Shown piece after piece: positions 9,931-59,284 of a DNA stretch of 64,000 bases. Location of the stretch: the NCBI GenBank assembly GCA_036556305.1, contig DATBJO010000018.1, forward strand, positions 23,918-87,917, written 5' to 3'. The notes beneath the pieces were generated by a model. That model was not told where the DNA came from and ran no database searches. It saw only the letters and a list, made by a program, of their open reading frames with translations. Origin of the DNA: Gemmatimonadota bacterium. Its GTDB lineage: Bacteria; Gemmatimonadota; Gemmatimonadetes; JACCXV01; JAHWKZ01. Each line of letters begins with the position of its first letter. Position 1 is the stretch's first letter. Both the position numbers and the translations under genes were made by a program.

Positions 9931-9937
9931 CAGGAGC

Positions 9938-9956
9938 TTGACCTCGGCCGTTCTGA
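9938..9956 (+). repeat. solo 3'-arm fragment of the dispersed palindromic repeat family
   Basis: TTGACCTCGGCCGTTCTGA, 8 nt after the tamB stop. It matches the 3' arms of the full copies (copy B GACCTCGGCCGTTTTGA, copy D TTGACCTTGGCGATTTTGA). Confidence 0.35.
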
Positions 9957-10036
9957 TCGATCTCCACACAGCTTCGAACTCCCACCTCCCTTCGACGTCC
10001 CCCCCTCGCCCATGTCCCGACGGCGGGCCGCCGGGG

Positions 10037-10071: not shown

Positions 10072-10905
10072 ATGAACACATTCAAGACCGTCCTCCTGAT
10101 GACCGTCCTGACGGCCGGGCTCGTGCTCGTCGGGGGATGGGTCGGCGGAGAGGGGGGCGCCCTCGCCGCGCTCGTCATCGCGGGCGCCATGAACTTCGTC
10201 TCCTATTTCTTCTCGGACAGGATCGTCCTGCGCATGTACCGGGCGCGGGAGGTGACGCGCGCGGAGGCCCCGGCCCTCTACGAGGTCGTCGAAGGGCTGG
10301 CGCGTCGCGCGGGGCTGCCGGTTCCGCGCGTGGCGATCATTCCCGGCGAGCAGCCGAACGCCTTCGCGACGGGACGCAACCCCGAGCACGCGGTCGTGGC
10401 GGCGACCGAGGGAATCCTGCGGATCCTCGATCGGGACGAGATCGAGGGCGTCATGGCCCACGAGCTCGCCCACGTCCGCCACCGGGACATGCTGATCTCG
10501 AGCGTGGCCGCGACGCTGGCCGGTGCGATCATGGTGCTCGCCCGCTTCGGGATGTTCTTCGGCGGGGGCGGCGACCGCGACCGGGGCGGCGGCGGGCTGG
10601 CCCTTCTGATCGTGATCCTCGCGCCGATCGCGGCGCTGCTCGTCCAGGCGGCGATCAGCCGCTCGCGCGAGTTCGCGGCCGACGCGGGGGGAGCCGAGAT
10701 CAGCGGCAAGCCGCGCGCTCTCGCGTCGGCGCTCAGGAAGCTCGAGGCCACGGCCGAGCGCGTTCCGCTCCACGGCAATCCCGCGACCGCGCACATGTTC
10801 ATCGTGCATCCGTTCCGTGGCGGGGGTCTGGGGAAGCTGTTCAGCACCCATCCGCCCACCGAAGAGCGCGTCGAGCGGCTGCTCGGGATGCGCGGCCTGG
10901 GGTAA
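10072..10905 (+). CDS. htpX: zinc metalloprotease HtpX
   Basis: [13 protein letters not shown].. N-terminal TM helices, [10 protein letters not shown] (HExxH), C-terminal [14 protein letters not shown] 10072 is chosen over the track start at 10012. Confidence 0.9.
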
Positions 10906-11863
10906 GCGGGCGGCCGGGGGGGATTCCGGGTCGGCGAGCCTCACTTCCGCGGAGACGTCTCTGCGCATCGCGGTCATCTACAATCCGGTCGCAGGTCGCG
11001 GAGCGGCGCGACAGGTCGCCGCACGGCTGGCGGCGCACGCCGCCGCGCGCGGCGATCGCGTCGACCTGCTCGGGACGGGTCGTCAGCTCGACGCGCGGGC
11101 GGCCACGAGGAAGGCGCTCGAGCAGGGGGCCGAGCGCGTGGTCGCGATCGGCGGAGACGGAACCGTCGTCGAGTCCGCGGCCGCCCTGCTCGACGTGCCC
11201 GCACCCCCGCCACTCTGCATCGTGCCGCAGGGCACGGCGAACCTCCTCGCCTTGAATCTCGGCATCCCCGCGGATCGGGAATCCGCCATCGACCTGGCGT
11301 TCAACGGCTCGGTCGTCCGGATCGACTGCGGGCGCGCGAACGGTGAGCCCTTCCTGATCGCGCTCGGTGCCGGCGTCCACGCGGAGCTCGTGGCCCTGGC
11401 CGATCGCGGAGCCAAGCGGCGCTGGGGGGTCGCGGCCTACGGCGTGGCGGGCTGGCGCGCGAGCCGCGGCGTCGAGCCTGCGCGCTTCCGCCTCGCGCTG
11501 GACGCCGAGGAGATCGAGATCGAGGCCACGACGATCCAGGTCATGAACGTCGCGTCGGTCCTGCGCCGCGGGTGGGAGTTCGCGCCCGGGGTCTCGCCCG
11601 TCGACGGGGTCCTGGACGTGATCGCCCACCGGGCGTCGACGCTCGCCGAGCACCTGGTCACGGCGGCGGCGGTCGTGCGCGGGGCTCCCACCGACACGGA
11701 TCTCGTCGTCCACCGGCCCGCGCGCAGCGTGCGGATCGACGTGGAGCCCCCCGTGCTGCTCCAGCGGGACGGCGAGATCGCGGGTCGGACGCCGGTCGAG
11801 ATCGACGTGATGCCGGGTGCGCTGCCGGTCCTCCTCCCGGCGAACGGACCGTGGACGTCCTGA
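10817..11863 (+). CDS. diacylglycerol/lipid kinase family protein (YegS/BmrU-like)
   Basis: [29 protein letters not shown] motifs. The start is uncertain: GTG 10817 overlaps htpX by 89 nt, and the only later in-frame candidate before the conserved N-terminus is CTG 10961. Confidence 0.8.
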
Positions 11864-16031: not shown

Positions 16032-16056
16032 GCCGCTGGGTGGATCTCGGAGGAAA

Positions 16057-16174
16057 GGCCGCTCAAGGCGGCCAAGATCAAGGCGCGCGACGAGGAGATT
16101 CCGAGGCGTGGCGAATCCCACGCCGCAGGAAGAGGCGAGGAGCGCAACGCAGAGGTTGGCCGTCTTCAGCGGCC
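16057..16174 (-). repeat. dispersed palindromic intergenic repeat, copy A (118 nt, inverted orientation)
   Basis: The reverse complement aligns along its full length with copies B, D and E. Terminal stem GGCCGCTGAAGACGGCCAA / TTGGCCGCCTTGAGCGGCC. Inner hairpin GGCGTGG-GATTCG-CCACGCC. Confidence 0.8.
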
Positions 16175-16176
16175 GC

Positions 16177-18834: not shown

Positions 18835-19886
18835 CGATCGCCGCCGAGACCCGTCCGCTCACGCTGACGCCGACCCATCCGTTCCGGATCGCCCGCTCGG
18901 AGCACGCCGCGTACCACCACTGGCTCGTCCGCCTGGAGTCCGGGGGCGAGGAGGGGTGGGGCGAGGCGGCGCCCTCCCGGCGCTACGGCGAGACCGCCGA
19001 GACGGTGGCCGCGGCGCTCGCCGAGCTGCTGCCGCTCGTCGGCGACGATCCGTACGCCATGGACGCGATCGAGCGCAGGCTCGACGGCCATCTCCGGGAG
19101 AACGCCAGCGCGAAGGCCGCGATCTCGGCCGCGCTCCACGACCTCGTCGGAAGGCAGCGGGGCCTTCCTCTCTACCGATGGCTCGGCCTCGACCTCGCCC
19201 GCATCCCTCCGACCTCGTTCACGATCGGGATCGCCGAGCCGGAGGCGATGGAGCGGAAGGTCGAGGAGGCCGCCGCGTATTCGATCCTCAAGATCAAGAT
19301 GGGCTTCGACGGCGACGTGGAGGTGCTCGAGCGGATCCGCGCGACGACCGACAAGCCGATCCGGGTCGACGCCAACGAGGGCTGGACGCGGGCGGGCGCT
19401 CTCGCGCGCCTCCCGGCGCTCGAGGACCTGGGCGTCGAGCTCCTCGAGCAGCCGCTCCCGGCCGCCGACCGGGAGGGTCTCGCGCTCGTCAGCGGCGCCA
19501 CCTCGATCCCGGTCGTGGCCGACGAGTCGTGCCGGACGACCGCCGACCTGGCGGGCCTCCAGGGGGTCGTCGACGCGGTCAACGTCAAGCTCGCGAAGAC
19601 CGGATCGATCGGCGAGGCCGTGCGCCTCATGACCGCGGCGCGCGCGCTCCACCTCGGGGTCTTCCTCGGCTGCATGGTCGAGTCCTCGCTCGGCATCGCG
19701 GCCGCGGCCCACCTCGCGCCGCTCGCCGACTGGGTCGACCTCGACGGGCATCTCCTCCTGTCCGACGACCCGTTCGAGGGGCTCCGGCTGGAGGCCGGCC
19801 GGGTGCTTCCGGACCCGGAGGCGCCGGGGCTCGGGGTCCGCCCGCGGGCGGAGTCCAGGCGACCGCGGGTCGCGTCGGAGGCCTGA
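18831..19886 (+). CDS. enolase-superfamily dipeptide epimerase (L-Ala-D/L-Glu epimerase-like)
   Basis: GTG 18831 overlaps the upstream stop (GTGA). Motifs KIKMG, VDANEGW, LEQPL, ADES, NVKLAKTG. Confidence 0.85.
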   Translation: MTIAAETRPLTLTPTHPFRIARSEHAAYHHWLVRLESGGEEGWGEAAPSRRYGETAETVAAALAELLPLVGDDPYAMDAIERRLDGHLRENASAKAAISAALHDLVGRQRGLPLYRWLGLDLARIPPTSFTIGIAEPEAMERKVEEAAAYSILKIKMGFDGDVEVLERIRATTDKPIRVDANEGWTRAGALARLPALEDLGVELLEQPLPAADREGLALVSGATSIPVVADESCRTTADLAGLQGVVDAVNVKLAKTGSIGEAVRLMTAARALHLGVFLGCMVESSLGIAAAAHLAPLADWVDLDGHLLLSDDPFEGLRLEAGRVLPDPEAPGLGVRPRAESRRPRVASEA

Positions 19887-20027
19887 CCCCGCTCCGGCAC
19901 GCCGTTTGCGCTTATCTGCGCCCGGTTTCCGCCGGGTCGCGGGAGCGGTTCCGGCAAACGCATGGACGGCAATCCCTTGGCTCCCCCGGCCCGGTTCGGC
20001 GGGGAGTCCGGGGAGCTGGCGCAGGGT

Positions 20028-20058
20028 TCAGATATCTGAGATTCGCTCAGAAATCTGA
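20028..20058. promoter_or_regulatory. two tandem 12-bp palindromes (operator-like)
   Basis: TCAGATATCTGA (20028-39, perfect) and TCAGAAATCTGA (20047-58, one mismatch). They sit 19 bp centre to centre in a comparatively AT-rich 390-bp intergenic region. Confidence 0.4.
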
Positions 20059-20275
20059 TCCCGCGTCGGAGTGTCTCCGAACGAACGGGAAGCGATTCGG
20101 CCGCGGAGGCGGCCCCAAGGTGACCGATACGCAGCAGCGAACGAGCAGCGACAAGGAGGTGCCGCGAAGCGAACCTGCTGTTCTACGCGCACGGGTTTCA
20201 GAACCTGGTTTTTCCAGTACGACAATTCGCGCAACTGACCCAGGGATGCACTCGAACAAGAGGAGCAAACCCAGA

Positions 20276-24072: not shown

Positions 24073-25278
24073 ATGAGGAAGTGGATCACGACCGGGGCGC
24101 TGGGGGTGCTGATGCTGTTCGGCGCCACCCTGGCCTACGGTCAGACGATGCACCGCAGCTTCGAGCTGTCGGCGCTCGGCGGAGTCAGGGTGTACGACAA
24201 GGATGTCGTATTCCTGAGCTCGGGCTGGGTCGCCGGCGGCAAGCTCGCCTGGTTCCCGCACGCCAACGTCGGCGTCGAGGGTACGGTGAGCTTCTCGAGC
24301 GCGGATGTGAATACGGAAGATGTCGGCGGTCCGGAGACCAACTTCACGGTCGACGTCACCGAGGTCCGGGTCGACGGCGTCTACCAGATGCTGTTCCAGG
24401 CCGAGCAGAAGATCGTGCCCTACTTCTCCGCCGGCGTCGGCCAGATGGTGTTCGACGCGGGTGAGGAGTCAGGGGTCACGGACGAGCCGGCCACGAACCT
24501 GACCTACGGCGGCGGGCTCAAGATCTGGTTCACGCCGCGGATCGCGCTTCGTCTCGACGCGCGCGACAACGTCGCGCTCATCGACAAGCCGTTCGCGAGC
24601 GAGTCCGGCATCCCGACGCCGAACACCAAGACGTTCCAGGCGAACAACCCGGAGTTCCAGGCCGGTCTCACGATCGGCTTCGGTGGCTCCGACGAGGGCT
24701 TCGGCGTCAAGGACACGGACTTCGACGGCGTGCCCGACAAGGACGACCTGTGCCCGAACACTCCGCGCGGCGTCATCGTCGACGAGACCGGCTGCCCGGT
24801 CGACTCCGACAACGACGGCGTGCCGGACGGGCTCGACGCTTGCCCCAACACGCCCGCGGGCGCGACGGTGGACGAGCGCGGCTGCCCGATGGATTCGGAC
24901 AACGACGGCGTCTACGATGGGATCGATCGCTGCCCCAACACGCCGGCTGGCGTTCAGGTCGACGAAACGGGCTGCCCGATTCCCGTCCCGGAAGCTCCGA
25001 AGGCGTGCCTGGACGATCAGTCCTGGTACACGAGCGACGCGACGATCAACGTCGACGGCAGGAACTGGGTGAAGTTCGGCTCGACGAAGACGGCCACCAT
25101 GGATCAGCTCACCCAGATGGGCGAGTACCAGGGCGTGCCGGCGTACGTCGGGAACAACGCCCGGCGGCCGTTCCGCGAGATCTGGCTGCCGTTGTGCTCG
25201 CCGGAGAACACCTACCAGCCGTACCGTCTGGAGAGCGAGGTCCGTGGCACGACCGGATACATCCGGGACGCCAACTAG
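24073..25278 (+). CDS. outer-membrane beta-barrel protein with thrombospondin type-3 repeats and an unrecognised C-terminal domain
   Basis: SD GGAGGGGA. Signal ..LFGATLAYGQ. OmpA-like barrel region. Three DxDxDGVPDxxDxCPNTP repeats. The last ~95 aa (KACLDDQSWY..LPLCSPENTY..) lack the OmpA_C peptidoglycan-binding motifs. Confidence 0.8.
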   Translation: MRKWITTGALGVLMLFGATLAYGQTMHRSFELSALGGVRVYDKDVVFLSSGWVAGGKLAWFPHANVGVEGTVSFSSADVNTEDVGGPETNFTVDVTEVRVDGVYQMLFQAEQKIVPYFSAGVGQMVFDAGEESGVTDEPATNLTYGGGLKIWFTPRIALRLDARDNVALIDKPFASESGIPTPNTKTFQANNPEFQAGLTIGFGGSDEGFGVKDTDFDGVPDKDDLCPNTPRGVIVDETGCPVDSDNDGVPDGLDACPNTPAGATVDERGCPMDSDNDGVYDGIDRCPNTPAGVQVDETGCPIPVPEAPKACLDDQSWYTSDATINVDGRNWVKFGSTKTATMDQLTQMGEYQGVPAYVGNNARRPFREIWLPLCSPENTYQPYRLESEVRGTTGYIRDAN

Positions 25279-25325: not shown

Positions 25326-25354
25326 GGGCCCCCGGAAGGGGGCCCTTCCTTTTT
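25326..25354 (+). terminator. intrinsic (rho-independent) terminator
   Basis: GGGCCCCC-GGAA-GGGGGCCC followed by TTCCTTTTT, 48 nt after the stop. Confidence 0.8.
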
Positions 25355-25355
25355 C

Positions 25356-25473
25356 GGCTGCTGAAAACGGCCGAGCTCATCGTTGCACACCCTCAGCCGT
25401 CCTGCGGCGTAGGTTCCACTACGCCTCGGACGTCTTCGGTCGCGCGCCTCGACCTCGGCCGTTTTGAGCAGCC
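25356..25473 (+). repeat. dispersed palindromic intergenic repeat, copy B (118 nt)
   Basis: Terminal stem GGCTGCTGAAAACGGCCGAG / CTCGGCCGTTTTGAGCAGCC. Inner hairpin GGCGTAG-GTTCCA-CTACGCC. Confidence 0.8.
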
Positions 25474-25596
25474 TCGCGAGAGCCGCGCACCCCCCCTGCG
25501 GAGTGCCCACCGTTCTCTCCCCGCGGGGGTTGCGCCGGGGAGGAGGCAAGGCAATGTTTAAAGGCTCGAGACGCGCTTCGAGGGACAGGAGGTAGA

Positions 25597-26217
25597 ATGG
25601 CCTTTGCCGTGAGGTTGCGGGCGCTCGCGCTGGCGGGCGCGCCCATCGCGCTTTCTCTCGGTTTCGCGCGGGCGGGGGAGGGCCAGACCCTGTTCGCCCT
25701 CGGCGAGACCGCCTACCTGGACTTCTCCGGAACGATGCCCGGCGCCGCCTACACGGCCCCCGGTGCGGACGAGATCTACATCCACGTGTCGATCGATCGC
25801 CGCGAGCTGACCGTGCGGCAGGGCTCGACCGTCCTCCACCGGTTCCCCGTGGCGGTCGGGAAGGGAGCCTATCTCCGCCACCGGGACGCCGAGAACGGCG
25901 GCTGGCTGTTCGAGACCCCCGCCGGCGTGTTCTCGGTCGGCCGCAAGGAGGAGAACCCGGTCTGGTACGCGCCCGACTGGCACTTCATCGAGAAGGGGCG
26001 ACCGGTTCCGGCCGCGAACAGCCCGTCGCGGTACTTCCCGGGGGACATGGGAGACTACGCGCTCTACCTGGGGGACGGGCTGGCGATCCACGGGACGCGC
26101 GACCAGAATTCGGTCGGTCAGGCCGCCAGCCACGGCTGCATGCGGCTGTCCAAGGTGGGGATCGCGACGGTCTATCCGCTGGTGCGCGTGGGCACGAAGG
26201 TGATCATCACGCCATAG
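25597..26217 (+). CDS. L,D-transpeptidase (YkuD domain)
   Basis: SD AGGAGG, signal peptide, and catalytic HGT....SHGCMRL motif (IHGTRDQNSVGQAASHGCMRL). Confidence 0.9.
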   Translation: MAFAVRLRALALAGAPIALSLGFARAGEGQTLFALGETAYLDFSGTMPGAAYTAPGADEIYIHVSIDRRELTVRQGSTVLHRFPVAVGKGAYLRHRDAENGGWLFETPAGVFSVGRKEENPVWYAPDWHFIEKGRPVPAANSPSRYFPGDMGDYALYLGDGLAIHGTRDQNSVGQAASHGCMRLSKVGIATVYPLVRVGTKVIITP

Positions 26218-26367
26218 GCCGCTGAAAACGGCTCATCTCTGCGTTGCACTCCCGATATGACGAAGAGGCCCGGCGCTCCGAGCACCGGGCCTCTTCGCTT
26301 CTCTTGAATCCTACGCCGCAGGAAGACACGAGGAGCGCGACAAAGCAGATGGGCCGTTATCGGCGCC
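26218..26367. repeat. dispersed palindromic repeat, copy C (150-nt variant enclosing a strong hairpin)
   Basis: Two 5'-arm-type sequences lie in inverted orientation (CTGAAAACGGCTCATCTCTGCGTTGCACTCC ... GGAGCGCGACAAAGCAGATGGGCCGTTATCGG). They flank GAAGAGGCCCGG-N11-CCGGGCCTCTTC (26262-26296) between two convergent genes. Confidence 0.7.
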
Positions 26368-26370
26368 CGT

Positions 26371-28068
26371 CTAGTTGCCGTTGCATTCGCCCGGGGTCTT
26401 CAGGAACACCGTCCCCAGCGCCTGCAGCGGCTGGCCGTCGACCCACGCCAGGAACAGGCGGCTCTGGTCGGCGCGAACCGGCGTATAGGTGAAGCGGATC
26501 TCCCCGGCGCCGTTCGTGCGCCAGCTCCCGAATCCCTGGAGCGGCCGGTATCCCGGCAGCGGCTGGCCGTTGCTGAACCGGAGCTCGGTGTACTTGCCGA
26601 TCGCGGGCCCGCCTCCGCCGGGGGCGTCGGCCCGGTTCTCGCCTTCGACCTCGATCTCGTACGGCTGCCCCGGGCAGATGGGAGCGGGGACGTTCACCCT
26701 GCCTCCGGAAGCGGACACGGTCGAGTTGGCGTTGATGGCGATCGTGTCCAGGTCGAGATCGGCCCAGACTCCCTCGCTCAGATCGACCTCGAACCGGAGT
26801 CCGAAGGGCTGAAAATCGATCATCGGCATCGCCTCGACCCGGGTGCTGACGTCGGTCACCAGGGTCCCGCTCGCGGTGCCCGTGTTGTCGGTGATCAGGA
26901 CCGGTCCCGGATTGAACGTGACGGTCGATCCGAGTGCGGTTCCGTCCGGAGCCACGAGGTTCGGCCGGGTCGGGGAGACCCGCACGCGGGCCCCCGAAAC
27001 CGGATCCCCGCGGGAGTCGCGCACGTGGATCGTGAATCCGAGCGGGTCGCTCCCGGTCGCCCAGACGGCGGGCGCGATCCCGGTGCCGTTGAATCTCGAG
27101 TTCCCCGTGACGGTGTAGTCGGAGTTCGCCGTGCTGACGTCGCGCAGGACGATGATGTCCTGGTCGACGTCGATCTCGGTCGATTTGCCCAGATTGTCGG
27201 TCAGGCGGAGGGCCGGCATGTAGTGGTCTTCGCGGAACGGATACGAGACCGTGATGTCCTCTCCGGGGGCGATGATCTCGAATCCGGCGCCCAGATCCTT
27301 GTCCAGCTCCCAGGTCACGATCGTCCCGTCTACATCCGTCCCCGAGGTCTCGAGCAGGATCATCAGCGGCGCGACTCCCTGAGGGGGAGCGCCGTTCAGA
27401 AGCCTGGAGTGGAGGGATCCCGTGGGCGGATCGTTGTGGGGAGCGACCGTGAGCTGACGCGAGGTCGTGGCCGGAACTCCGATGTTGTCCACGGCGCGGG
27501 CCGTGAGCGTGTAGGTGCCTTCGGCGGCGTACGTGTGGGTCGCCGTGAAGGGGCTCGACGCGCCGCTCGAAGGAGCCGTCCCGTCCCCCCAATCGACCGA
27601 GAGGCTCTGGACGGTGCCGTCGGCATCGGTCGCGGTCACGCGCCCGGTGAACTCCGTATCGTTGGCCTCGCCGGTCACCGGTTCGACCGTGAACGAGGTG
27701 ATCTGCGGGGGCAGGTTCCCCGGGGCTTCGATGTCGACCGTGAACAGGATGATGTCGGGCGTCGCGAGCGGGTCGCTGGATCGGATCAGAGCCTGGACGA
27801 CGTGGTGCTGCGACGTCGGCTGGAAGATGAAGACGGGGCCGGGCTCGCTCCGGGTGTCGTCGATGAGGTACTCGACCGTCCGCCCGCCGTTCGCTCGAAT
27901 CTCGAAGCGGACGGACTCGCCGGGGGACACGATCACGTTCCGCGAGGACGGGCTCACGATCTCGAACGGCGCGGATCCCGAGCCGGACGAGCACGCATGC
28001 GAGAGGATCACGCACGCCAGGACGCAAAACAGAGCGGGGCGCGCACGCATGAGGGTGCATGACGTCAT
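26371..28068 (-). CDS. PKD-domain lipoprotein with Ig-like C-terminal module (paralog 1)
   Basis: Signal with Cys (VILSHAC). PKD motif TATDADGTVQSLSVDWGDGT..HTYAAEGTYTLTARAVDN. The C-terminal ~330 aa are colinear with the next gene. Confidence 0.8.
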   Translation of the reverse strand: MTSCTLMRARPALFCVLACVILSHACSSGSGSAPFEIVSPSSRNVIVSPGESVRFEIRANGGRTVEYLIDDTRSEPGPVFIFQPTSQHHVVQALIRSSDPLATPDIILFTVDIEAPGNLPPQITSFTVEPVTGEANDTEFTGRVTATDADGTVQSLSVDWGDGTAPSSGASSPFTATHTYAAEGTYTLTARAVDNIGVPATTSRQLTVAPHNDPPTGSLHSRLLNGAPPQGVAPLMILLETSGTDVDGTIVTWELDKDLGAGFEIIAPGEDITVSYPFREDHYMPALRLTDNLGKSTEIDVDQDIIVLRDVSTANSDYTVTGNSRFNGTGIAPAVWATGSDPLGFTIHVRDSRGDPVSGARVRVSPTRPNLVAPDGTALGSTVTFNPGPVLITDNTGTASGTLVTDVSTRVEAMPMIDFQPFGLRFEVDLSEGVWADLDLDTIAINANSTVSASGGRVNVPAPICPGQPYEIEVEGENRADAPGGGGPAIGKYTELRFSNGQPLPGYRPLQGFGSWRTNGAGEIRFTYTPVRADQSRLFLAWVDGQPLQALGTVFLKTPGECNGN

Positions 28069-28245: not shown

Positions 28246-30480
28246 TCAGGAGCCGCACTCGGAAACGGGTTTGAGCGCGATCAGGCCGAGTTGCTGAAGC
28301 GGCTGGCCGTCCACCCAGGCGTGAACGAGCCGGCTCTGGTCCGCGCGCGTCGGCGTGTAGCCGAACCGGATGACGCCGGCGCCGTCGGTCCGCCAATCGT
28401 CGTAGCCGGGTCGAGGCGCGGCGCCCAGATACGAGCCGTCGGTGTAGCGCAATTCGGTGTAGCGGCCGGCGTCCGCAGACCCCGGCGACGGGGCCTCGGG
28501 GCCGCGTCTGGCCAGAACCTCGATCTCGATCGGCGTTCCCGGGCAGACCGCCTGGTTCGCGGGGAAGACGAGGACCTGACTGGAGGAGGCAGACACCATC
28601 GAGTTCGCGTTGAGGCCGTCGACGCGCGCCACCTCCCGCCATTGACCATGTCCGGCGTCGGCCTCGAACACGAGCGCGAAGGCCTGGAAGGCGATGACCG
28701 GCGCGCGCTCGATGCGCGTGCTGAGGACCGTCGTGAGCGTCCCGCCGGCGGTCCCGTCGCTCCCGGTCCGCAGGTTCCCGGCGGTCAGGACCACCTCCGG
28801 TCCGAGCGCAACACCGTCCGGCGCGAAGAGCGCGCCGCGGGTGTGACCGACCCGGATCGGAACGTCGGGAAGCGGGTCCCCGCCGGGATCATGGACGCTG
28901 ACCGCGAAGCGCCACTCGTCTTCGCCGTCGGACCACACGGCGGGGGCGATCAGCGTGGAGGCGAAGTGAGGGTTGCCGGTCGCCGACGCGCTTCCGCCGG
29001 CGATCGGGCGATACACGGTGACGGGGGCACCCTCCACGATCGTGGTCGCGCCGGAATCGTCGGTGAGCCGGAGGCGCGGCCGGTAGGCGTTCTCGTCGAA
29101 CGCGTAGACGAGCGTGGCCGTCAGCGAGGCGTCGAGCTCGAGGAAGCCATCGCCCTCGTTGGCCTCGATCTCCCACTTCACGATCCGGCCGTCCGGATCC
29201 GAGCCGCTCGCCGTGGCCCGGACCTCGAGGGGGGCGTCGCCGCTCGTCGCGCCGAGGTCGAGCGCCCCGATCGGTGCCGCGTTCTGGGAGGCACGGACGA
29301 CGACGGTCGCAACCGCGGCCCCGCTCGCCCCGTCGTCGTCCTCGACCGTGGCGCGGACGAGGTAGGTGCCGGGCAGCTCGTACCGGAAGGCGGCGGCGAG
29401 GGTCGCGGCCTGAGCGGACGCGTCCGTCTCACCGTCGCCGTCGAAGTCGACCCTCACGGCGCGGACCACGCCATCGGAGTCGGTCCCCGCGACGAGGGCT
29501 TCGACGTCGAGCGGCGCGTCGCCTTCGGCGGGACTCACGACGAGAGTCGCCGCGGGAGCCGCGTTGCCCGGAGGCGGCTCCGAGGCGGTGACCTGGACGC
29601 GCACCGAATCCCTCCCCTCGGCCCCCCGGTCGTCGGTGACGGCGAGCCGGATCCAGGTCGTCACGGGATGCGGGAAGCGGGCGGTCCGGACGAGCGGCGC
29701 GGCGCTCTCGACCTCGAACGCGCCGTCGCCGTCGAGATCGAGCCGGTAGCGCGCGACTTCGCCGTCCGGGTCGCTGCCGCCGGCCTCGACCCGGACGTCG
29801 AGCGGCGCGACTCCGGACACCGGATCGACGACCAGGATCGGAACCGGCGGTCGATTCGGAGGAGTGACTTCGATCGGGCGGGTGGCTACGGCGGACGCCC
29901 CCCGCTCGTCCTCGACGATCGCGGTCGCCTGCCAGCTTCCGGCCTCGAGGAGCAGAAGCGTATCGATGGGCGCCGCATGCTCGACGACGAACGCCGCGGG
30001 ACCGACGACCTCGAGCCGGAAGCGGGTCACGGAACCGTCGGGATCGGCCCCCTGGACGCGGAACCGCGCGACGAGCGGCGCCTCTCCGCCCCCCGGCTCG
30101 ACCGAAAGCACGGCGGTCGGGGGCACGTTCGGCGGCGCCTCGACCGTGACGGTCCACGCGCAGGCGGTCTCGAGCTGGCCGTCCGACACGATCGCCGAAA
30201 CGAGATAGGTCCCCGGGGCCGCCGGCGCGAACACGAATGTCGCCCCGCTCGCCTGCGGGGCGCCGTCGACCAGGAACGTGATCGCGAGCGGCTTCGCGCG
30301 GGGACTCGTCGCCTCGACGTGGAACTCGACGTGAGCGCCGGTCTCGATCCGCACCTCGGAGACGCCGGGTGAGACGCTCGCCAGTCGCGGCGCGTCGGCA
30401 GGACCCGGCCCTCCGGGCCCCGATGGGCCCGGGCCGCAGAAGAGGAGCGGAGAAGTCAGGAGAAACGCGAAGCGACGCAC
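28246..30480 (-). CDS. multi-PKD-domain lipoprotein with Ig-like C-terminal module (paralog 2)
   Basis: GTG 30480 gives VRRFAFLLTSPLLFC (lipobox). Several PKD repeats (..DPDG.V..Y.LD.DGDG..). The C-terminus aligns with paralog 1 (..RADQSRL..AWVDGQPLQ..). The track start at 30822 would overlap the divergent gene and its promoter. Confidence 0.8.
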   Translation of the reverse strand: MRRFAFLLTSPLLFCGPGPSGPGGPGPADAPRLASVSPGVSEVRIETGAHVEFHVEATSPRAKPLAITFLVDGAPQASGATFVFAPAAPGTYLVSAIVSDGQLETACAWTVTVEAPPNVPPTAVLSVEPGGGEAPLVARFRVQGADPDGSVTRFRLEVVGPAAFVVEHAAPIDTLLLLEAGSWQATAIVEDERGASAVATRPIEVTPPNRPPVPILVVDPVSGVAPLDVRVEAGGSDPDGEVARYRLDLDGDGAFEVESAAPLVRTARFPHPVTTWIRLAVTDDRGAEGRDSVRVQVTASEPPPGNAAPAATLVVSPAEGDAPLDVEALVAGTDSDGVVRAVRVDFDGDGETDASAQAATLAAAFRYELPGTYLVRATVEDDDGASGAAVATVVVRASQNAAPIGALDLGATSGDAPLEVRATASGSDPDGRIVKWEIEANEGDGFLELDASLTATLVYAFDENAYRPRLRLTDDSGATTIVEGAPVTVYRPIAGGSASATGNPHFASTLIAPAVWSDGEDEWRFAVSVHDPGGDPLPDVPIRVGHTRGALFAPDGVALGPEVVLTAGNLRTGSDGTAGGTLTTVLSTRIERAPVIAFQAFALVFEADAGHGQWREVARVDGLNANSMVSASSSQVLVFPANQAVCPGTPIEIEVLARRGPEAPSPGSADAGRYTELRYTDGSYLGAAPRPGYDDWRTDGAGVIRFGYTPTRADQSRLVHAWVDGQPLQQLGLIALKPVSECGS

Positions 30481-40767: not shown

Positions 40768-41723
40768 GCGGCGCGCGGGAGATCGGCGTCATCGGGACGG
40801 TCGTCGAGGACACGATCGACCGGCCCGGCGAGGAGACCGTCCACGACATGGGAGGCGCGTACCATTCCGTGATCGCGATGAGCGTCCTGCTCCCGGACGG
40901 GACCGTCGCCGTCCCGATCACGACGGTGGGCGAAGACACGCTGGCGCGCGTCCGCGCGGACTGGGGCCGGCTGCCGCGGATCTCGCTGGCCGGGATCCAC
41001 GCGGTCCCCGAGGTCAACAACAAGGTCCATCTCGAGTATGATTCCGAAGGCGGGCGCGACGAGACGCTGACCGGCGGCGTCCCCCCGCTCCCCTGGGGCG
41101 AGCTCGAGCCGTGGGCGGACCGCGTCTTCGCGTGGTGCTGGAACTTCATCGCGGGGAACGAAGTCGACCGCGAGACGTTCGAGCGCGTCAAGCGCGCGTC
41201 CCGCGGGCCGCTCCACCTGGACGTCCACAACCTCTGCTTCGGTCCCCCGCGCGCGGGGAAGCCACGCGAGCATCGCGCGCCGGAGGATTGGGAGGGGTGG
41301 GTCCGGGGAGCGACCTGGGTGCAGGTGAACGAGGTCGAAGCCGGGCTCCTGTGGGAGGGCCGCGCCGCGCCGCTGCCCCACGACGGTGAAGGCGCGCTCG
41401 CGGCGCGCGTGCACGCGCTCGGCGCCGAAGGGCTCCTGATCACCCGCGGCGCGCGGGGCGCGACCTGGCTTCCGCGGGGCGGGCCGGTCTTCGAGGCCCC
41501 CGCACGGTCGGGCCCCGGGATCGACCCGACCGGATGCGGCGACGTCTTCGGCGCGGCCTGGGTCGCCCTTCGCGTCGCGCGGGGAATGGACCCCGAGACG
41601 GCGGTCCGAGGCGCCGTGCGCGCGGCGGGAGCGGCGGCGACCGTGAGCGGAGCGGCCGGGCTGGGCGCGGCTCTCGAGCGGGCCGCGGCCGGGATCTTCA
41701 AAAGCGAGGAGGCACGCCGATGA
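40764..41723 (+). CDS. PfkB-family carbohydrate kinase
   Basis: ATG overlaps the ROK stop (ATGA). C-terminal DPTGCGDVFGAAW motif. Confidence 0.85.
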   Translation: MSGAREIGVIGTVVEDTIDRPGEETVHDMGGAYHSVIAMSVLLPDGTVAVPITTVGEDTLARVRADWGRLPRISLAGIHAVPEVNNKVHLEYDSEGGRDETLTGGVPPLPWGELEPWADRVFAWCWNFIAGNEVDRETFERVKRASRGPLHLDVHNLCFGPPRAGKPREHRAPEDWEGWVRGATWVQVNEVEAGLLWEGRAAPLPHDGEGALAARVHALGAEGLLITRGARGATWLPRGGPVFEAPARSGPGIDPTGCGDVFGAAWVALRVARGMDPETAVRGAVRAAGAAATVSGAAGLGAALERAAAGIFKSEEARR

Positions 41724-42883
41724 GCCGGCCTGACGAACGGGAGCCCCGTCTCGACACGCTGGGGGTCCACGCGGGGACGGCATCCGATCCGCCGTACGGC
41801 GCGGTCGTGACGCCGATCTTCCAGTCTTCGACGTTCGCGTATCCGTCCGGCGACCGGGAGCTCCTCTATACGCGCTATGGAAACAACCCGAGCCAGGAGG
41901 CGGTCCACGCGAAGCTCGCCGCGCTGGAGGGCGCGGAGGCCGGACTCGCTCTCGCCTCGGGCATGGCCGCGATCTCGACCGGGCTCCTCTCCATCTGCGG
42001 CCGAGACGATCACGTGGTCGCCGCGCCTGCGCTCTACGGCGGGACGCACTCGCTCCTCGACCGCGAGCTCCCCCGGCTCGGCATCGAGATCACGTATGCC
42101 GACGGGTTCGATCCCGATGCGTTCGAATCCGCGAGCCGCGACACGACGCGTCTATGGATGTGGGAGTCGATCTCGAACCCGCTCCTGCGCGTGCCGGACG
42201 GTCCCGCCCTCGCCGCCCGGGCGCGGGAGCGTGGCATCGCGACGCTCGTCGACGCCACGTTCGCGAGCCCGATCAACCAGCGTCCGGCGACCTTCGGCGT
42301 CGACCTCGTCATGCAGAGCGCGACCAAGTATCTCGGCGGCCACTCGGACCTGATCGGCGGGACGCTGGCCGGCTCCGGAGAGCGGATCCGGCGCGCGACC
42401 GAGCTGCTCCACGTGCTCGGCGGCTCGATCGACCCGCTCGCCGCGTTTCTCCTCGAGCGGGGGATGAAGACGCTGGCGCTGCGCATGGCGCGCCACTCCG
42501 AGAACGGCCGCGCGGTGGCCGACTTTCTCGCCGGCCATCCGCGGGTCGAGCGGGTCCACTACCCGACCCGGCCCGATCATCCCGACAGGGCGACGGCCGC
42601 CCGCGTGCTCACCGGAGCGGGCGGCGTCGTGACGTTCGTGCCGCGGATGAGCGCCGCGGAGACGGCGGCGCTGGTCGACCGCTTCCGCTGGATCCGCCTG
42701 GCGCCGAGCCTCGGCGGCGTGGAGTCCCTCGTCTCGATGCCGTCGATGACGTCCCACCGCATGATGGCTCCCGCCAGGCGGCGGGCGCGCGGGATCGACG
42801 ACGCGATGGTGAGGCTGGCGCTGGGGGTCGAGGCCGTGGAGGACCTGATCGACGACCTCGACCGCGCGTTGTCGGGGCGTTGA
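41720..42883 (+). CDS. PLP-dependent trans-sulfuration enzyme (cystathionine gamma-synthase/lyase family)
   Basis: ATG overlaps the upstream stop (ATGA). SATKYLGGHSD PLP-lysine motif. Confidence 0.9.
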   Translation: MSRPDEREPRLDTLGVHAGTASDPPYGAVVTPIFQSSTFAYPSGDRELLYTRYGNNPSQEAVHAKLAALEGAEAGLALASGMAAISTGLLSICGRDDHVVAAPALYGGTHSLLDRELPRLGIEITYADGFDPDAFESASRDTTRLWMWESISNPLLRVPDGPALAARARERGIATLVDATFASPINQRPATFGVDLVMQSATKYLGGHSDLIGGTLAGSGERIRRATELLHVLGGSIDPLAAFLLERGMKTLALRMARHSENGRAVADFLAGHPRVERVHYPTRPDHPDRATAARVLTGAGGVVTFVPRMSAAETAALVDRFRWIRLAPSLGGVESLVSMPSMTSHRMMAPARRRARGIDDAMVRLALGVEAVEDLIDDLDRALSGR

Positions 42884-42992
42884 AAACCGCCAATCTCTGC
42901 GTTGCACTCCTCGTGTCTTCCTGCGGCGTACGATTCAGTACGCCTCGGAATCCCCTCGTCGTGCGCCTTGACCTTGGCGATTTTGAACGCCC
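42875..42992 (+). repeat. dispersed palindromic intergenic repeat, copy D (118 nt)
   Basis: Terminal stem GGGCGTTGAAAACCGCCAA / TTGGCGATTTTGAACGCCC. Inner hairpin GGCGTAC-GATTCA-GTACGCC. The 5' end overlaps the last codons and the TGA of the upstream gene. Confidence 0.8.
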
Positions 42993-43024
42993 TTTGATTC
43001 TCTCGCACTCACCGGCATAAGCCC

Positions 43025-48509: not shown

Positions 48510-49640
48510 ATGACGCCGCTCGTGCTCCCCATCGGCGTCGAAGAGGAGTACCAGCTCTGCGAGCCGGACACGGGCGACCTGACACCCGCCGTCGAGGCGG
48601 TGCTGGGCGCCGCGAGCCCGGAGCTCCGCGAGCGCCTGGGGTACGAGCTCCTGCACACGGTCCTCGAGGGGAACATCGAGAAGTCCGTCGACTTCGCCGA
48701 TGCGATGGGTCGCGTGCGGGCGCTCCGCTGCGACGTCCTCGAGGTGGCGGCGTCGCTCGGCGTCGCGATCGGGATCGGTGGCGTGCACCCGTTCGCGCGC
48801 TGGCAGGACCAGGACTTCGTCGACACGCCCGCGTACCAGTGGGTGGGACGCCAGCTGCGGTACCTGGCCCGCCGCAACCTGTCGTTCGGTCTCCACGTCC
48901 ACGTGCAGATCGAAGACCCCGAGGCGCGGGTCTACGTCGCCAACCAGCTGCGGCGGTGGTGCGCCCCGCTCCTCGCGCTGTCCGCCAACTCGCCCTTCTT
49001 CGACGGCGCCGACACGGGCTTCCAGTCGATCCGCGTGCACGTCTTCGGGTCGTTCCCTCGCACCGGGTTCGCGCCGCGCTTCCGCGACTGGTCCCACTAC
49101 ATGCGGGTCATCGACCGGCTGACCGATTCCGGCGCGATCACCGCTCCGCGTCAGGTGTGGTGGAACGTGCGGCCCCACGTGACGTACAGCACGGTCGAGC
49201 TGCGGATGCTCGACATGCAGATCGGTCTCGACCGCACCCGCGCGCTCGTCGCGCTCTCGCAGGCGGCGACGGCGGACCTCGTGTCGCGCTGGGAGGCGGC
49301 CGAGCCCGAGTGGGAGCTCGAGCCGGCCTGGCTCGCAGACGGCTGGTTCAAGGCCCAGCGCTTCGGCTGGGACGAGCCGGTCGCGCATCCGATCACGGGG
49401 GAGACCGTGAGCCTCCGCGACGAGATCGAGGAGATGCTCAGACTCGCGCGCCCGTGGGCGGCCGAGCTGGGAACGACGGCCGACGCGATCGACGGGACGC
49501 GGCGGATCCTGGCCGAGGGTCCGGAGGCCGACTGGCAGCGCCGCGAATGGGAAGCGAACGGCCGCGACTTGGGGGCGCTTCAGCGGCGGATCTTCGGGAG
49601 GGTCAGGGACGAAGCCCGCTGCGAAGCCCTCGTGGGCTGA
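48510..49640 (+). CDS. carboxylate-amine ligase, glutamate-cysteine ligase family 2 (YbdK-like)
   Basis: IGVEEEYQL N-terminus, GLHVHV, and VELRMLD motifs. Confidence 0.85.
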   Translation: MTPLVLPIGVEEEYQLCEPDTGDLTPAVEAVLGAASPELRERLGYELLHTVLEGNIEKSVDFADAMGRVRALRCDVLEVAASLGVAIGIGGVHPFARWQDQDFVDTPAYQWVGRQLRYLARRNLSFGLHVHVQIEDPEARVYVANQLRRWCAPLLALSANSPFFDGADTGFQSIRVHVFGSFPRTGFAPRFRDWSHYMRVIDRLTDSGAITAPRQVWWNVRPHVTYSTVELRMLDMQIGLDRTRALVALSQAATADLVSRWEAAEPEWELEPAWLADGWFKAQRFGWDEPVAHPITGETVSLRDEIEEMLRLARPWAAELGTTADAIDGTRRILAEGPEADWQRREWEANGRDLGALQRRIFGRVRDEARCEALVG

Positions 49641-49642
49641 AA

Positions 49643-49681
49643 AATCGTCATCCACAGTCGCGCGCCTCGACGATGACGATT
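49643..49681 (+). terminator. hairpin after the GCS2 gene
   Basis: AATCGTCATC ...(inner GTCG/CGAC stem)... GATGACGATT, flanked by AAAA and TCTT. Confidence 0.4.
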
Positions 49682-49720
49682 CTTGCGTCGGCATCCGGTT
49701 CCAGGAGCCTCTTCTCGGCG

Positions 49721-51795: not shown

Positions 51796-52374
51796 ATGAG
51801 CGCGCGCGACGAGACCCGCGAGATCCCCATCGAAGACCCGCAAGCCGAGGCGCCGTCGTCCGCGGGCGACGAGCGGGGCGACCTCCCGGAGGAGCCGGTG
51901 GTCGCGACCGAGGACCTCGAGGAGGAGATCGAGGAAGAGCTCACCGCGCTCCAGGACCGGTTCCTGCGGCTCCAGGCCGAATTCGACAACTACCGCAAGC
52001 GCGAGGCGCGGGAGCGCTCCGCCGCCTGGGCGCGCGCCAAGGCAGACCTCGTCCAGAAGCTCCTGGGCGCGCTCGACGACTTGCAGCGCGTCGCGCACTT
52101 CGATCCAGAGAAGACGAGCGCGTCCGCGATCATGGACGGCGTCTCGCTCGTCGAGCGTAAGCTCGTCGAAACCCTGCGTCGCGAGGGGCTGGCGCGGATC
52201 GGCGAGCCGGGAGAGGCCTTCGATCCGCATCGTCACGAGGCGATCTCCACGCTCGCCACGGCGAACCCGGAGCAGGACGGGACGGTGGCCGCGGTCGCGA
52301 TCCCCGGCTACGAGTTCGGGAGCCAGCTGTTGCGGCCCGCGCAGGTGCAGGTCTACGAGCACCGACAGGGTTGA
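51796..52374 (+). CDS. grpE: nucleotide exchange factor GrpE
   Basis: Acidic N-terminus, RLQAEFDNYRKR motif, C-terminal beta domain. TATATT at 51782-87 lies 8 nt before the ATG. Confidence 0.95.
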   Translation: MSARDETREIPIEDPQAEAPSSAGDERGDLPEEPVVATEDLEEEIEEELTALQDRFLRLQAEFDNYRKREARERSAAWARAKADLVQKLLGALDDLQRVAHFDPEKTSASAIMDGVSLVERKLVETLRREGLARIGEPGEAFDPHRHEAISTLATANPEQDGTVAAVAIPGYEFGSQLLRPAQVQVYEHRQG

Positions 52375-52504
52375 AATGACCAATCTCTGCGTTGCACTCG
52401 CTCGGCTGTCCTGCGGCGTGGGTTCCACTACGCCTCGCACCCACCTTCGGTGGGTACCGGCCCCACTCGCGCGCCTTGACATTGGTCATTTCGGAACTCC
52501 TGTC
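52364..52504 (+). repeat. dispersed palindromic intergenic repeat, copy E (141 nt, with an extra UUCG hairpin)
   Basis: Terminal stem GACAGGGTTGAAATGACCAAT / ATTGGTCATTTCGGAACTCCTGTC. Inner hairpin GGCGTGG-GTTCCA-CTACGCC (one G-T pair). Inserted CCCACC-TTCG-GGTGGG. Fills the grpE-dnaJ spacer. Confidence 0.8.
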
Positions 52505-52521
52505 AGTTCAGCGTCTCCTTA

Positions 52522-57264: not shown

Positions 57265-58194
57265 ATGAAACGCGCGACGCTTCTTCTCGGGATCTTCGCC
57301 CTCGCGATGTCGTTGGCCTTCTGTCAGGACGGGAAGGGCCCGATCACGCCTCAACTCCCGGGCGGATCGGATATCGGCCTTGCCGCGGTTCCCCTGCTCG
57401 GTCAGATCGTTTTTACGAGCACGCGGGACGGCAATGCCGAGATCTACGTCGTTGACACGAGAACTTCCAGCCTCACGAACTTGACGAACCACTCGTCGGA
57501 CGAGTTCGACGCTCGCCTGTCACCCAATAGAAAGCGACTTGTCTTCTCCAGCTGGCGGGACGGCAATTCGGAGATCTATGCGTCCGATGCCGATGGCTCG
57601 AATCCGACCAACCTCACGAACAGCCCGGCCACTGAAGGCGAGGACGCCGATTGGTCTCATAACGGAAAACGCATCGTCTTCCAAAGTGATCGTGACGGCG
57701 ATCTCGAGATCTACATCATGAACGCGGATGGGACCGGGATCGTCCAGCTCACCCAGAATTCGGCTACGGATCGCCAACCCGACTGGTCGCCGGACGGGAG
57801 GAAGATCGCGTTCGTGAGCAATCGGGATGGAAACCAGGAGGTCTACGTGATGTGGGTAGACGGCACCGGGCAAACGAACCTGACGAACGATCCGGCGGTC
57901 GATCGACAACCCGCGTGGTCACCGAACGGACAGAGGATCGCGTTCGATAGCACGCGGAGCGGTAGCCGTCAAGTGTGGGTGATGGACCAGGACGGGTCGC
58001 AGCCCACGATGCTGACAGCCACGGGATCGAACCTCCAGCCGGCATGGTCTTTCGAAGGTCACCACATCGCCTTCGTCTCGAACCGTGACGGTGACAGCGA
58101 AGTCTACGTGATGGCCAGCGATGGGTCCGGCCAGACGAATCTCACCATGAGCCCCGGAAGTGACGAGTTCGACCCCTCATGGCATAGGTGGTGA
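57265..58194 (+). CDS. TolB-like PD40 (WD40-like beta-propeller) repeat lipoprotein
   Basis: Lipobox SLAFC. Six or more repeats of the S.DG..I.F.S.RDGN.EIYVM type. Visibly lower GC than its surroundings. Confidence 0.85.
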   Translation: MKRATLLLGIFALAMSLAFCQDGKGPITPQLPGGSDIGLAAVPLLGQIVFTSTRDGNAEIYVVDTRTSSLTNLTNHSSDEFDARLSPNRKRLVFSSWRDGNSEIYASDADGSNPTNLTNSPATEGEDADWSHNGKRIVFQSDRDGDLEIYIMNADGTGIVQLTQNSATDRQPDWSPDGRKIAFVSNRDGNQEVYVMWVDGTGQTNLTNDPAVDRQPAWSPNGQRIAFDSTRSGSRQVWVMDQDGSQPTMLTATGSNLQPAWSFEGHHIAFVSNRDGDSEVYVMASDGSGQTNLTMSPGSDEFDPSWHRW

Positions 58195-59208: not shown

Positions 59209-59284
59209 GACCCCATCGTCTAGAGGCCTAGGACTCCACCCTTTCAAGGTGGCGACACGGGTTCGAATCCCGTTGGGGTCGCCA
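59209..59284 (+). tRNA. tRNA-Glu(UUC): tRNA-Glu (anticodon UUC), CCA encoded
   Basis: Cloverleaf read by hand: acceptor GACCCCA/TGGGGTC, D arm GTCTAGAGGCCTAGGAC, anticodon stem CCACC/GGTGG with loop CTTTCAA, T arm ACGGG-TTCGAAT-CCCGT, discriminator G, CCA. Confidence 0.95.

Follow-up and report, generated by a model that had tools for sequence, protein, structure and literature searches.

The window analysed here, a stretch of 64,000 nt from a Gemmatimonadota bacterium (contig DATBJO010000018.1, positions 23,918 to 87,917), has a G+C content of 70.3% and carries a dispersed family of long palindromic repeats, of which the copy at 42873-42995 is the element under study. The TGA at 42881-42883 in the left arm of this copy is the stop codon of a Cys/Met-metabolism pyridoxal-phosphate enzyme gene (41720-42883), and a glycerate kinase gene starts 32 nt 3' of its right arm. 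A search with nhmmer and a model of four copies detected the full copies in the window with E values of 1e-13 to 1e-37, and a repeat scan recovered them as direct and inverted families. Each full copy forms one long hairpin, with z scores of -5 to -9 against dinucleotide shuffles. The window has eight sites of the family: the four full copies, a pair of half-copies that face each other, a copy with an internal deletion and a remnant of a right arm. They are listed below with the intrinsic terminator and the GC-rich hairpin that neighbour some of them.

9937-9965, plus strand: right-arm remnant, 7 nt past the stop codon of gene 6211-9930
16055-16176, minus strand: full copy (nhmmer), reverse with respect to both neighbours, uvrA and sdaAB
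25326-25355, plus strand: intrinsic terminator, GGGCCCCCGGAAGGGGGCCC plus TTCCTTTTTC, whose final base adjoins the left arm of the 25356 copy
25353-25475, plus strand: full copy (nhmmer), beginning right behind the T-tract of the canonical intrinsic terminator of an ompA-like gene
26215-26252, plus strand: left half-copy, adjoining the TAG stop codon of the ykuD-like gene 25597-26217
26262-26296, no strand assigned: GC-rich hairpin GAAGAGGCCCGG...CCGGGCCTCTTC, between the two facing half-copies and outside the family
26306-26371, minus strand: left half-copy with the arm variant CGATAACGGCCC, extending through the 5' side of the apex stem
42873-42995, plus strand: full copy (nhmmer), the element under study
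49632-49695, plus strand: copy with an internal deletion, both arms and the right inner part being kept and the apex missing
52363-52505, plus strand: full copy (nhmmer) of the mini-hairpin subfamily (CACCCACCTTCGGTGGGTACC), sitting 4 codons within the grpE 3' end

The arm TGA of the last of these copies (52372-52374) is now the grpE stop codon, and dnaJ starts at 52522. In the same way, the left-arm TGA of the internally deleted copy (49638-49640) is the stop codon of gene 48510-49640, and a related locus, L063 (related loci are given by their L numbers), has a full element at the junction orthologous to window 49640|49758. The remnant 9937-9965 reached E values of only 0.35-0.83 with the full model and 0.0025 with a right-arm model; full elements sharing its outer helix (ATCGATCCAC) stand at the junction orthologous to window 9930|10012 in L017 and L106. 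The minus-strand half-copy adjoins the stop codon of the PKD-domain gene 26371-28068 on the same strand. The GC-rich hairpin between the two half-copies is probably the terminator of the convergent genes; lacking a T-run, it is not flagged by the terminator scan. It is placed as if it replaced both right halves, and L066 and L028 have complete convergent element pairs at the equivalent position. In the reverse copy 16055-16176 the left arm comes within 1-2 nt of the ATG of sdaAB (16177), and the right arm lies 25 nt past the uvrA stop codon (16031). The ribosome-binding region of sdaAB must lie within this hairpin (fold of about -60 kcal/mol), and the same start-codon geometry recurs before ftsA in L091 and in L056/L061.

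The original prediction, made from the window alone, had described a repeat of about 118 nt with five full copies plus one fragment. The sequences lie where it had placed them and four of its full copies were recovered by both nhmmer and the repeat scan; its arm and hairpin variants are all confirmed, the unpaired G and the G.T wobble of the 52364 copy among them. The count becomes four full and four partial copies, with 49632-49695 as the site that had been missed, and the supposed variant copy at 26218-26367 is really two left halves placed face to face with the GC-rich hairpin between them. The 3'-arm fragment proposed at 9938-9956 is a true remnant, given the E value of the right-arm model and the full elements in two syntenic genomes. 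The copy at 16057 is reverse-oriented, with its left arm at the start of sdaAB. The 118 nt are the core of the unit, and conserved sequence runs about 3 nt further on each side.

The unit is about 124 nt long and all copies fold as one long hairpin. An outer helix of 7 bp (GGNCGNT / ANCGNCC) is followed by an inner helix (AAAAYGGCC / GGRCCRTTTT), by conserved, pyrimidine-rich internal loops and by a nearly invariant apex hairpin (TTCC-TGC-GGCGTRS-loop-SYACGCC-TC-GGAA). The two helices are separated by a G.G mismatch, which is invariant in 55/55 copies and puts TGA in both arms. With this mismatch as anchor, the left half reads [G-Y-M] GGNCGNT. G. AAAAYGGCC(C/G) ATCT(G)C.GCGTTGCGCTCCTCGTGTC TTCC TGC GGCGTRS-loop, and the right half SYACGCC TC GGAA TCC.CTCGTCGCGCGCCTTG(C)ATCT (G/C)GRCCRTTTT. 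G. ANCGNCC [T-N-C-G]. The invariance of the apex core is partly circular, the core being the search pattern of the census described below; the window copies and the copies found only with the hidden Markov model show a very conserved core regardless of this search bias.

The folding of a 50-copy MAFFT alignment with RNAalifold gave 37 pairs, with double-sided changes in 22 of them. Paired cells made up 97.4% of the total against 85.4% in shuffles, none of the 500 shuffles being as good, and fell to 33-44% when the partners were slid by 1-3 columns; the covariation score was 0.331, compared to 0.106 in shuffles. Positions 2 and 5 of the outer helix exhibited all four Watson-Crick types in near-equal numbers and were paired in 51-54 of the 55 copies. 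A 1-nt insertion in the left arm (ATCT-G-C) is mirrored by a 1-nt insertion in the right arm (TTG-C-ATCT). The covariation that had been proposed from a few copies thus held in the larger alignment, with 214 double-sided changes. The compensation is strong, but the copies may owe part of it to the subfamily they descend from and to gene conversion rather than to selection acting step by step in place. The variable positions of the outer helix fall on the third positions of GGN CGN TGA; an origin in codon wobble was considered and this is probably a coincidence, the inner helix being without 3-nt periodicity. No match to a sigma-70-like promoter was found inside the element.

We looked for further members in a census of one genome per species, with the conserved core TCCTGCGGCGT-N8-12-ACGCCTCG as pattern, which returned at least 118 loci. 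Among the matches listed, about 70 are full-length members, nearly all from 10 Gemmatimonadota species represented by metagenome-assembled genomes (MAGs), so that the expectation of further copies outside the window was borne out. Weaker members with the full architecture were present in two "Deltaproteobacteria" MAGs, one Methylomirabilales MAG and one Rokubacteriota MAG. Core matches in actinobacteria, archaea and viral contigs are without hairpin context and were set aside as chance; carriage by phages was likewise rejected, since the six core matches in viral contigs have no hairpin (z about 0). The plasmid collection gave no hit for the family. The window proteins are 66-92% identical to, and syntenic with, those of four Gemmatimonadota MAG loci, which places the window in this phylum. 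Throughout, the neighbours are housekeeping genes such as uvrA, sdaAB, ligA, grpE, dnaJ and ftsA/ftsZ, and the copies lie kilobases apart. Rfam models applied to the window at gathering thresholds returned a tRNA gene and nothing else, and at E<=10 the element itself gave chance-level hits only, in line with the earlier failure to recognise a named family. The literature search found no paper describing a Gemmatimonadota repeat.

The strongest regularity of the family, to which the original prediction gave too little weight, is an oriented and nucleotide-close tie of the left arm to gene 3' ends. Genes were called with a simple codon-usage caller trained on these loci, so the calls are our own, and about 10 orthologous groups cut the independent sample to roughly 40 loci. 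The left arm faces the stop codon of a same-strand upstream gene in 48/55 copies, lies between -9 and +16 nt from that stop codon in 44/55, and in 11 copies provides it through its own TGA, as in the window for genes 41720-42883, 48510-49640 and 51796-52374. Every copy farther from a stop codon adjoins another kind of gene 3' end: a tRNA-Asn at 0 nt, a tRNA-Met 3 nt past the CCA, a tRNA-Leu at 8 nt and, twice, the last T of an intrinsic terminator (including the window 25356 copy). Taken together, 49/55 copies have the left arm at most about 16 nt (median 2) from the 3' end of an upstream same-strand unit, whether a stop codon, a tRNA or a terminator T-tract. In 47/47 copies the gap on the left is the smaller one (p=1e-14), with medians of 2 nt on the left and 61 nt on the right; orientation is biased 49:6 (p=2e-9), and a uniform placement was rejected at about 1e-40 among the 26 copies whose room is 40 nt or more. 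In reverse-oriented copies, the left arm is found 1-18 nt from the start codon of the next gene. The tRNA gene of the window (59209-59281, its sole Rfam hit) is without an element 3' of it, unlike the three tRNA genes in related loci.

Because the G.G mismatch gives TGA in both arms, at least two reading frames are closed within the element on the sense strand, which is the case in 49/55 copies read forward compared to 12/55 read in reverse. Among the adjacent native stop codons TAG is enriched (18/33 against about 29%, p=0.003), at variable offsets, and in the left flanks the stop-codon signal was the only insertion motif present. Tolerance of insertions explains the preference for the upstream side; it does not account for a precision of 0-10 nt, for the orientation or for the copies at tRNAs and terminators.

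The comparison of orthologous junctions indicated that the element has moved, as these are filled, empty or decayed depending on the species, with independent insertions at some of them. Between grpE and dnaJ, L063, L119, L120 and L123-125 are empty: grpE ends in ...EHRPDPS-TGA and is followed by 6-22 nt and the dnaJ start, whereas the grpE product of the window ends in ...EHRQG-TGA through the TGA of the element arm. At the same junction L121 has an internally deleted mini-hairpin 9 nt past the native stop codon and L122 a right-hand remnant only; as the window copy lies inside the open reading frame (ORF) and the other two after the native stop codon, these are independent insertions. At the junction 6199|6211, L059 has a full element, L017 a core-deleted one and the window none (TAG, 11 nt, ATG). 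A junction that is orthologous in L077 and L056/L061 carries a forward copy in L077 and a reverse copy of another subfamily in L056/L061, again independent insertions. Units have thus entered the short spacers at the 3' ends of genes again and again, in independent events, at times replacing the last codons of the gene and donating the left-arm TGA as its new stop codon, and have later decayed through internal or one-sided deletions.

Copies within a genome are on average 77% identical, with a maximum of 96% for two different loci, and non-orthologous copies of different species reach 93-94%. Orthologous copies are 74-83% identical, compared to 68-76% at third codon positions; strong conservation of sequence in place was therefore rejected, the identity of orthologous copies barely exceeding that of third codon positions. 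These values fit conserved source copies that spawn new copies, which then undergo near-neutral drift and decay by deletion. At the divergence of the orthologs roughly a fifth of the pairs are expected to be broken and 2.6% were, so pairing has been restored, either selection or conversion being responsible; the arms are actively kept complementary as the sequence drifts. The orthologous copies of L017 and L106 are mosaic, with the same outer helix and a different inner-helix subfamily, which suggests conversion between copies.

Two smaller features were noted within the units. In L017 (1703-1800), part of the left arm of a core-deleted element is duplicated in front of it (GTCGGTCGGTGAATC GGTCGGTGAAAAC), and L054 has a similar left-arm duplication (GGATGTTGAAAATGGGCAGGATGTTGAAAATGG); this stutter may be a footprint of copy insertion or recombination. 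In copies of several species, a tiny hairpin of the type (G)ACCCAC-CTTCGG-GTGGGT(A)CC occurs at one fixed point just 3' of ACGCCTCG, and similar inserts, GGGTGCCCC/GGGGCACCC, make the arms longer in L099 and L023. It looks like a nested second mini-insertion or an old subfamily marker, and its locations are as follows.

Tiny extra hairpin: window 52427-52451; L054; L077; L091 (2548-2722); L023; L099

We then considered whether the maintained fold is one of RNA or of DNA. The 214 cells with double-sided changes stand against about 10 with single-sided changes of the G.U type, and the unpaired cells are mostly C.A, which is a U.G wobble on the opposite strand. This opposite strand is the more stable one in 52/56 copies with both RNA and DNA parameters (mean gains of 6.4 and 3.2 kcal/mol, respectively), the less stable "plus" strand being the sense strand at 49/55 sites. 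TnpA-REP, IS200/IS605 TnpA and IntI recognise one folded strand of single-stranded DNA (ssDNA) and depend on irregularities of the stem, and repair of the bulge in repetitive extragenic palindromic (REP) sequences abolishes activity (PMC8266576); the invariant G.G mismatch is a parallel to these required irregularities. Compensatory changes are also documented in long mobile DNA hairpins, the REPINs (PMC3116915). Few G.U intermediates, an opposite strand that folds better and a mismatch that never varies all favour a hairpin of DNA (ssDNA) over one of RNA. The earlier claim of selection on a folded nucleic acid is in this way supported and narrowed.

The central ~65 nt of the element are found again in other phyla, in MAGs of Binatia, Acidobacteriota, Proteobacteria and further groups, where they form the apex of long hairpins whose arms are unrelated. 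They are also present in a ~174-nt repeat of the 'Myxococcales' MAG YF1.bin66 (JAKAPL), a textbook MITE (miniature transposable element with inverted repeats) with the conserved termini CCCGTCTTATTCACGG and CCGTGAATAAGACGGG and clean 5-bp target-site duplications (TSDs) of the pattern NTNAN. Its copies are near-identical, and a 205-207-nt variant has an extra G-rich hairpin. Like the Gemmatimonadota element, this MITE has the centre ...CTCC..TTCC-TCCTGCGGCGTGC-loop-GCACGCCTCG-TCGG-TCGTCGC... at the apex of a long hairpin; it differs in its unrelated termini (CCCGTCTTATTCACGG), in making TSDs and in the near-identity of its copies. The sharing argues that the apex is a module with a role of its own, as a recognition site or cargo, and not simply a transposon end.

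Myxococcales MITE loci: L021, L022, L024, L030, L039, L049, L060, L067, L069, L076, L084, L085, L087, L117

The account to which we give somewhat better than even chances is that the family consists of small non-autonomous mobile DNA palindromes of the REP/REPIN/MITE kind, carried by Gemmatimonadota as well as by a few further soil phyla. How they move, and any role at the RNA level, are what we infer on this basis. The maintained object would be a folded single DNA strand, recognised by a structure- and strand-specific enzyme acting in trans, for which HUH/RAYT-like enzymes (RAYT, REP-associated tyrosine transposase), tyrosine recombinases and enzymes of another class are candidates. The strands would be told apart by the conserved apex, the internal loops and the G.G mismatch, while the N positions of the arms would only need to pair, the arms being kept complementary by lineage selection on source copies and gene conversion among copies. 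Once inserted, the element would be co-transcribed as an intercistronic or 3'-untranslated hairpin, which probably affects termination-proximal ribosomes or the stability of mRNA 3' ends like the close-to-stop REPs of E. coli, and selection at the RNA level may add to the orientation bias.

Several observations weigh against this account. No transposase or RAYT gene, the latter typically flanked by its repeats, was found beside any copy, between paired copies (ftsA and the like) or elsewhere in the ~1.2 Mb of loci, the window included, as had been stated before, and tblastn of E. coli RayT against the window and 166 loci (~1.2 Mb) gave a best E of 0.49, which is weak evidence since such genes are single-copy. 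No TSD was found over all choices of boundary, nor by comparison of the filled and empty grpE-dnaJ sites. The flank matches that do occur belong to one TC..TC subfamily, and other flanks are complementary, that is, the helix extends. Variability is highest at the termini and conservation highest at the centre, the reverse of REPINs and of MITEs with terminal inverted repeats (TIRs), and the presence of the apex in a TSD-making MITE with unrelated termini argues for a passenger or functional module and not for a transposase site. Old orthologous copies that are still paired need selection in place or frequent conversion. Moreover, the positional rule (median 2 nt, 47/47, 49:6) is unexplained by known DNA transposition chemistry. 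Also, no matching arm pair enclosing an ORF, as expected of an autonomous version, was present in ~1.1 Mb.

A host-selected cis-acting RNA element at gene 3' ends is a real but clearly less probable explanation: mobility would merely supply the copies, and position and orientation would follow from a function in ribosome stalling and trans-translation, in protection of the upstream cistron from 3' exonucleases or in setting relative operon expression. The placement is what such an element would show, with 44/55 copies at -9 to +16 nt from a stop codon and the arm TGA as stop codon in 11, an orientation of 49:6 and the smaller gap on the left in 47/47, sense-strand TGA in both arms closing at least two of three frames in 49/55 copies compared to 12/55 in reverse, and many copies that separate genes of one direction in operons such as ftsQ-ftsA-ftsZ and grpE-dnaJ. 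E. coli has a precedent in REPs that lie within 15 nt of a stop codon (PMC12306157), and the pairing kept by old orthologous copies is also in its favour. However, G.U pairs are almost unused and the sense RNA has the weaker fold by ~6 kcal/mol in 52/56 copies; close relatives without the element at the same junctions, and decayed remnants, indicate that single copies are dispensable; orthologous copies evolve near the synonymous rate; and at tRNA 3' ends and beyond intrinsic terminators there is no ribosome termination and little transcript is expected. These last cases agree with another, unlikely reading, in which the choice of site senses the 3' boundary of a gene product and not a DNA motif, a mode so far undescribed. 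Under it the left end would land 0-10 nt past stop codons, the last base of mature tRNAs or terminator U-tracts, always co-oriented. Integration might take an RNA 3' end as its template or be coupled to one, for example through a template switch onto the 3' end of a transcript or a tRNA, or alternatively a structure-specific recombinase might be recruited by the transcription or translation termination machinery; the apex module, common across phyla and to an unrelated TSD-type MITE, would be functional cargo or a recognition site.

The remaining explanations are much less probable. Terminators without a U-tract ('I-shaped'), or general 3'-end processing signals, that spread as mobile modules would account for very stable hairpins directly 3' of genes and of tRNA genes and for convergent genes that each have their own copy (window 26215/26371; L066, L028). 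We consider this very unlikely, since no T-run follows the hairpin (right-flank consensus CC-T-N-C-G), most copies occupy gaps of 24-100 nt between operon genes of the same direction, where ending transcription would do harm, two copies stand redundantly right behind a canonical terminator, and the convergent pair of the window has a separate GC-rich hairpin in its middle; the terminator scan flags only separate terminators upstream of two copies. Integron attC-type sites, or a related cassette system, have a similar size (~120 nt), a structure kept while the arms vary, a conserved unpaired base, a fixed orientation past stop codons and one strand that folds better. This origin is effectively refuted by the absence of the R''/R' core sites (RYYYAAC, GTTRRRY) at both ends in either orientation, the ends reading GGNCGNTGAAAAYGG and CCRTTTTGANCGNCC, and by dispersed housekeeping neighbours with copies kilobases apart, no promoterless cassette arrays and no integrase nearby. 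Finally, the plus strand could code for a small protein with a lipoprotein-signal-like start, (M/L)KTANLCVALL.SSCGV..., the structure being secondary: the frame is stop-free through the window copies, the insertion of the 52364 copy adds 18 nt in the frame region, and ATG, TTG or GTG precedes AAA in some copies. Frequent indels of 1 or 2 nt across a set of 50-70 copies refute this idea and leave it hardly any probability (ATCT(G)C in 38/50 and absent from 12, CCTCGT(G)TC, loops of 4-7 nt); in addition 42% of copies have CTG at the 'start', a position that simply covaries with the one it pairs with, and variation tracks base-pairing, not codon position. A basic frame on the minus strand was rejected as coding because of indels that are not multiples of 3 nt and of the pairing-linked variation.

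The mobile palindromes of the favoured account have several known relatives in form. REP sequences, with their BIME (bacterial interspersed mosaic element) and REPIN arrangements, are likewise high-copy extragenic palindromes in housekeeping operons, and likewise form long hairpins that show compensatory changes (PMC3116915) and keep an irregularity in the stem, here the G.G mismatch in 55/55 copies. The RAYT enzyme takes one folded ssDNA strand and needs a stem mismatch (PMC8266576), which can be compared to the mismatch and the strand asymmetry of the family. The E. coli malE-malF REP, CCGGA-TGC-GGCG-TGAA-CGCC-TTG-TCCGG, resembles the apex TTCC-TGC-GGCGTAC...GTACGCC-TC-GGAA in TGCGGCGT and CGCCT and has the same layout of a lower stem, a TGC internal loop and a GGCG upper stem. 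However, a REP is defined as a short (20-40 nt) palindrome tagged at one end by an unpaired GTAG or CGTC (PMC3733652). The family is without the GTAG tag, GTAG/CTAC occurring only within the apex stem as one of three variants (GTAC, GTAG, GTGG), and its CGTC is found ~8 nt from the apex hairpin and not at the foot. REPINs combine two conserved REP ends with a variable paired spacer (PMC3116915), whereas here the apex is conserved and the ends are variable but paired. Many REPs lie 1-20 nt past the upstream stop codon, and in E. coli those less than 16 nt away cause ribosome stalling and lower translation, but only 11-50% are that close (PMC12306157), compared to ~80% of the family copies that hug a stop codon; the family is moreover strict in its orientation to the upstream gene and belongs to another host phylum.

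The likeness to ERIC, BIME and Correia elements that had been pointed out is apt. The ERIC/IRU, Correia/NEMIS, YPAL, RUP and other bacterial MITEs are non-autonomous imperfect palindromes of 100-170 nt that form long hairpins of RNA or DNA in transcribed intergenic regions; some overlap or donate stop codons and their insertions are polymorphic between relatives. Classical MITEs have sequence-conserved TIRs, shared with an autonomous IS, and TSDs (e.g. TA), unlike the family with its variable termini (GGNCGNT) and no TSD; the family was set apart from ERIC, Correia, YPAL and RUP by their descriptions. The attC sites of integrons share the structure-conserved, sequence-variable palindrome (~60-140 nt) with unpaired strand-marking bases and a fixed orientation after an ORF, but have the R''/R' cores, cassette arrays and integrase that the family lacks, its copies being dispersed among core genes. 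Class C group II introns insert in one orientation immediately 3' of intrinsic terminator hairpins and home to gene 3' ends by structure; the analogy concerns site choice only, as these are ribozyme retroelements of at least 700 nt with their own reverse transcriptase, and none is present here. The mycobacterial MIRUs are intergenic repeats in operons, co-oriented and overlapping the stop and start codons of their neighbours, but are tandem direct repeats with small ORFs and not palindromic hairpins. The family is thus near the REP/REPIN/MITE kind and a member of none, being without GTAG tag, conserved ends, TSDs, attC cores or an Rfam match. Its most unusual feature is its position, the oriented hugging of gene 3' ends, which merits further study together with the cross-phylum apex module.

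Gemmatimonadota are abundant soil bacteria with almost no molecular genetics. At 8 sites per 64 kb the family is dense. Core genes such as grpE and a metB/C-like gene have had their C-termini and stop codons rewritten by it, and copies sit in essential operons such as ftsQAZ and grpE-dnaJ. The family explains assembly breaks and odd ORF ends in these MAGs and could be a typing marker. The more than 70 diverged copies with a maintained long hairpin make the question of DNA or RNA selection directly testable, and the strict oriented placement, exceeding that reported for E. coli REPs, hints at a rule of insertion or selection.

Outside the family, the regions 10905-11851 and 19886-20246 have long ORFs on both strands, yet no confident gene call by codon usage. 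The other repeats of the window lie within genes.

24712-24981: 3 tandem 90-nt repeats in the ompA-like gene 24073-25278, thrombospondin type 3 (calcium-binding), Pfam TSP_3
57409-57845: 4 diverged repeats of ~132-135 nt in gene 57265-58194, with ...RDGN.EIY-type units
26422-26523 and 28294-28395: 102-nt direct repeat, 77% identity, in the 3'-end regions of the minus-strand genes 26371-28068 and 28246-30480

The repeats at 57409-57845 are, from their sequence, probably beta-propeller (PD40/TolB-like) blades, and the 102-nt direct repeat suggests paralogous C-terminal domains in the two adjacent genes.

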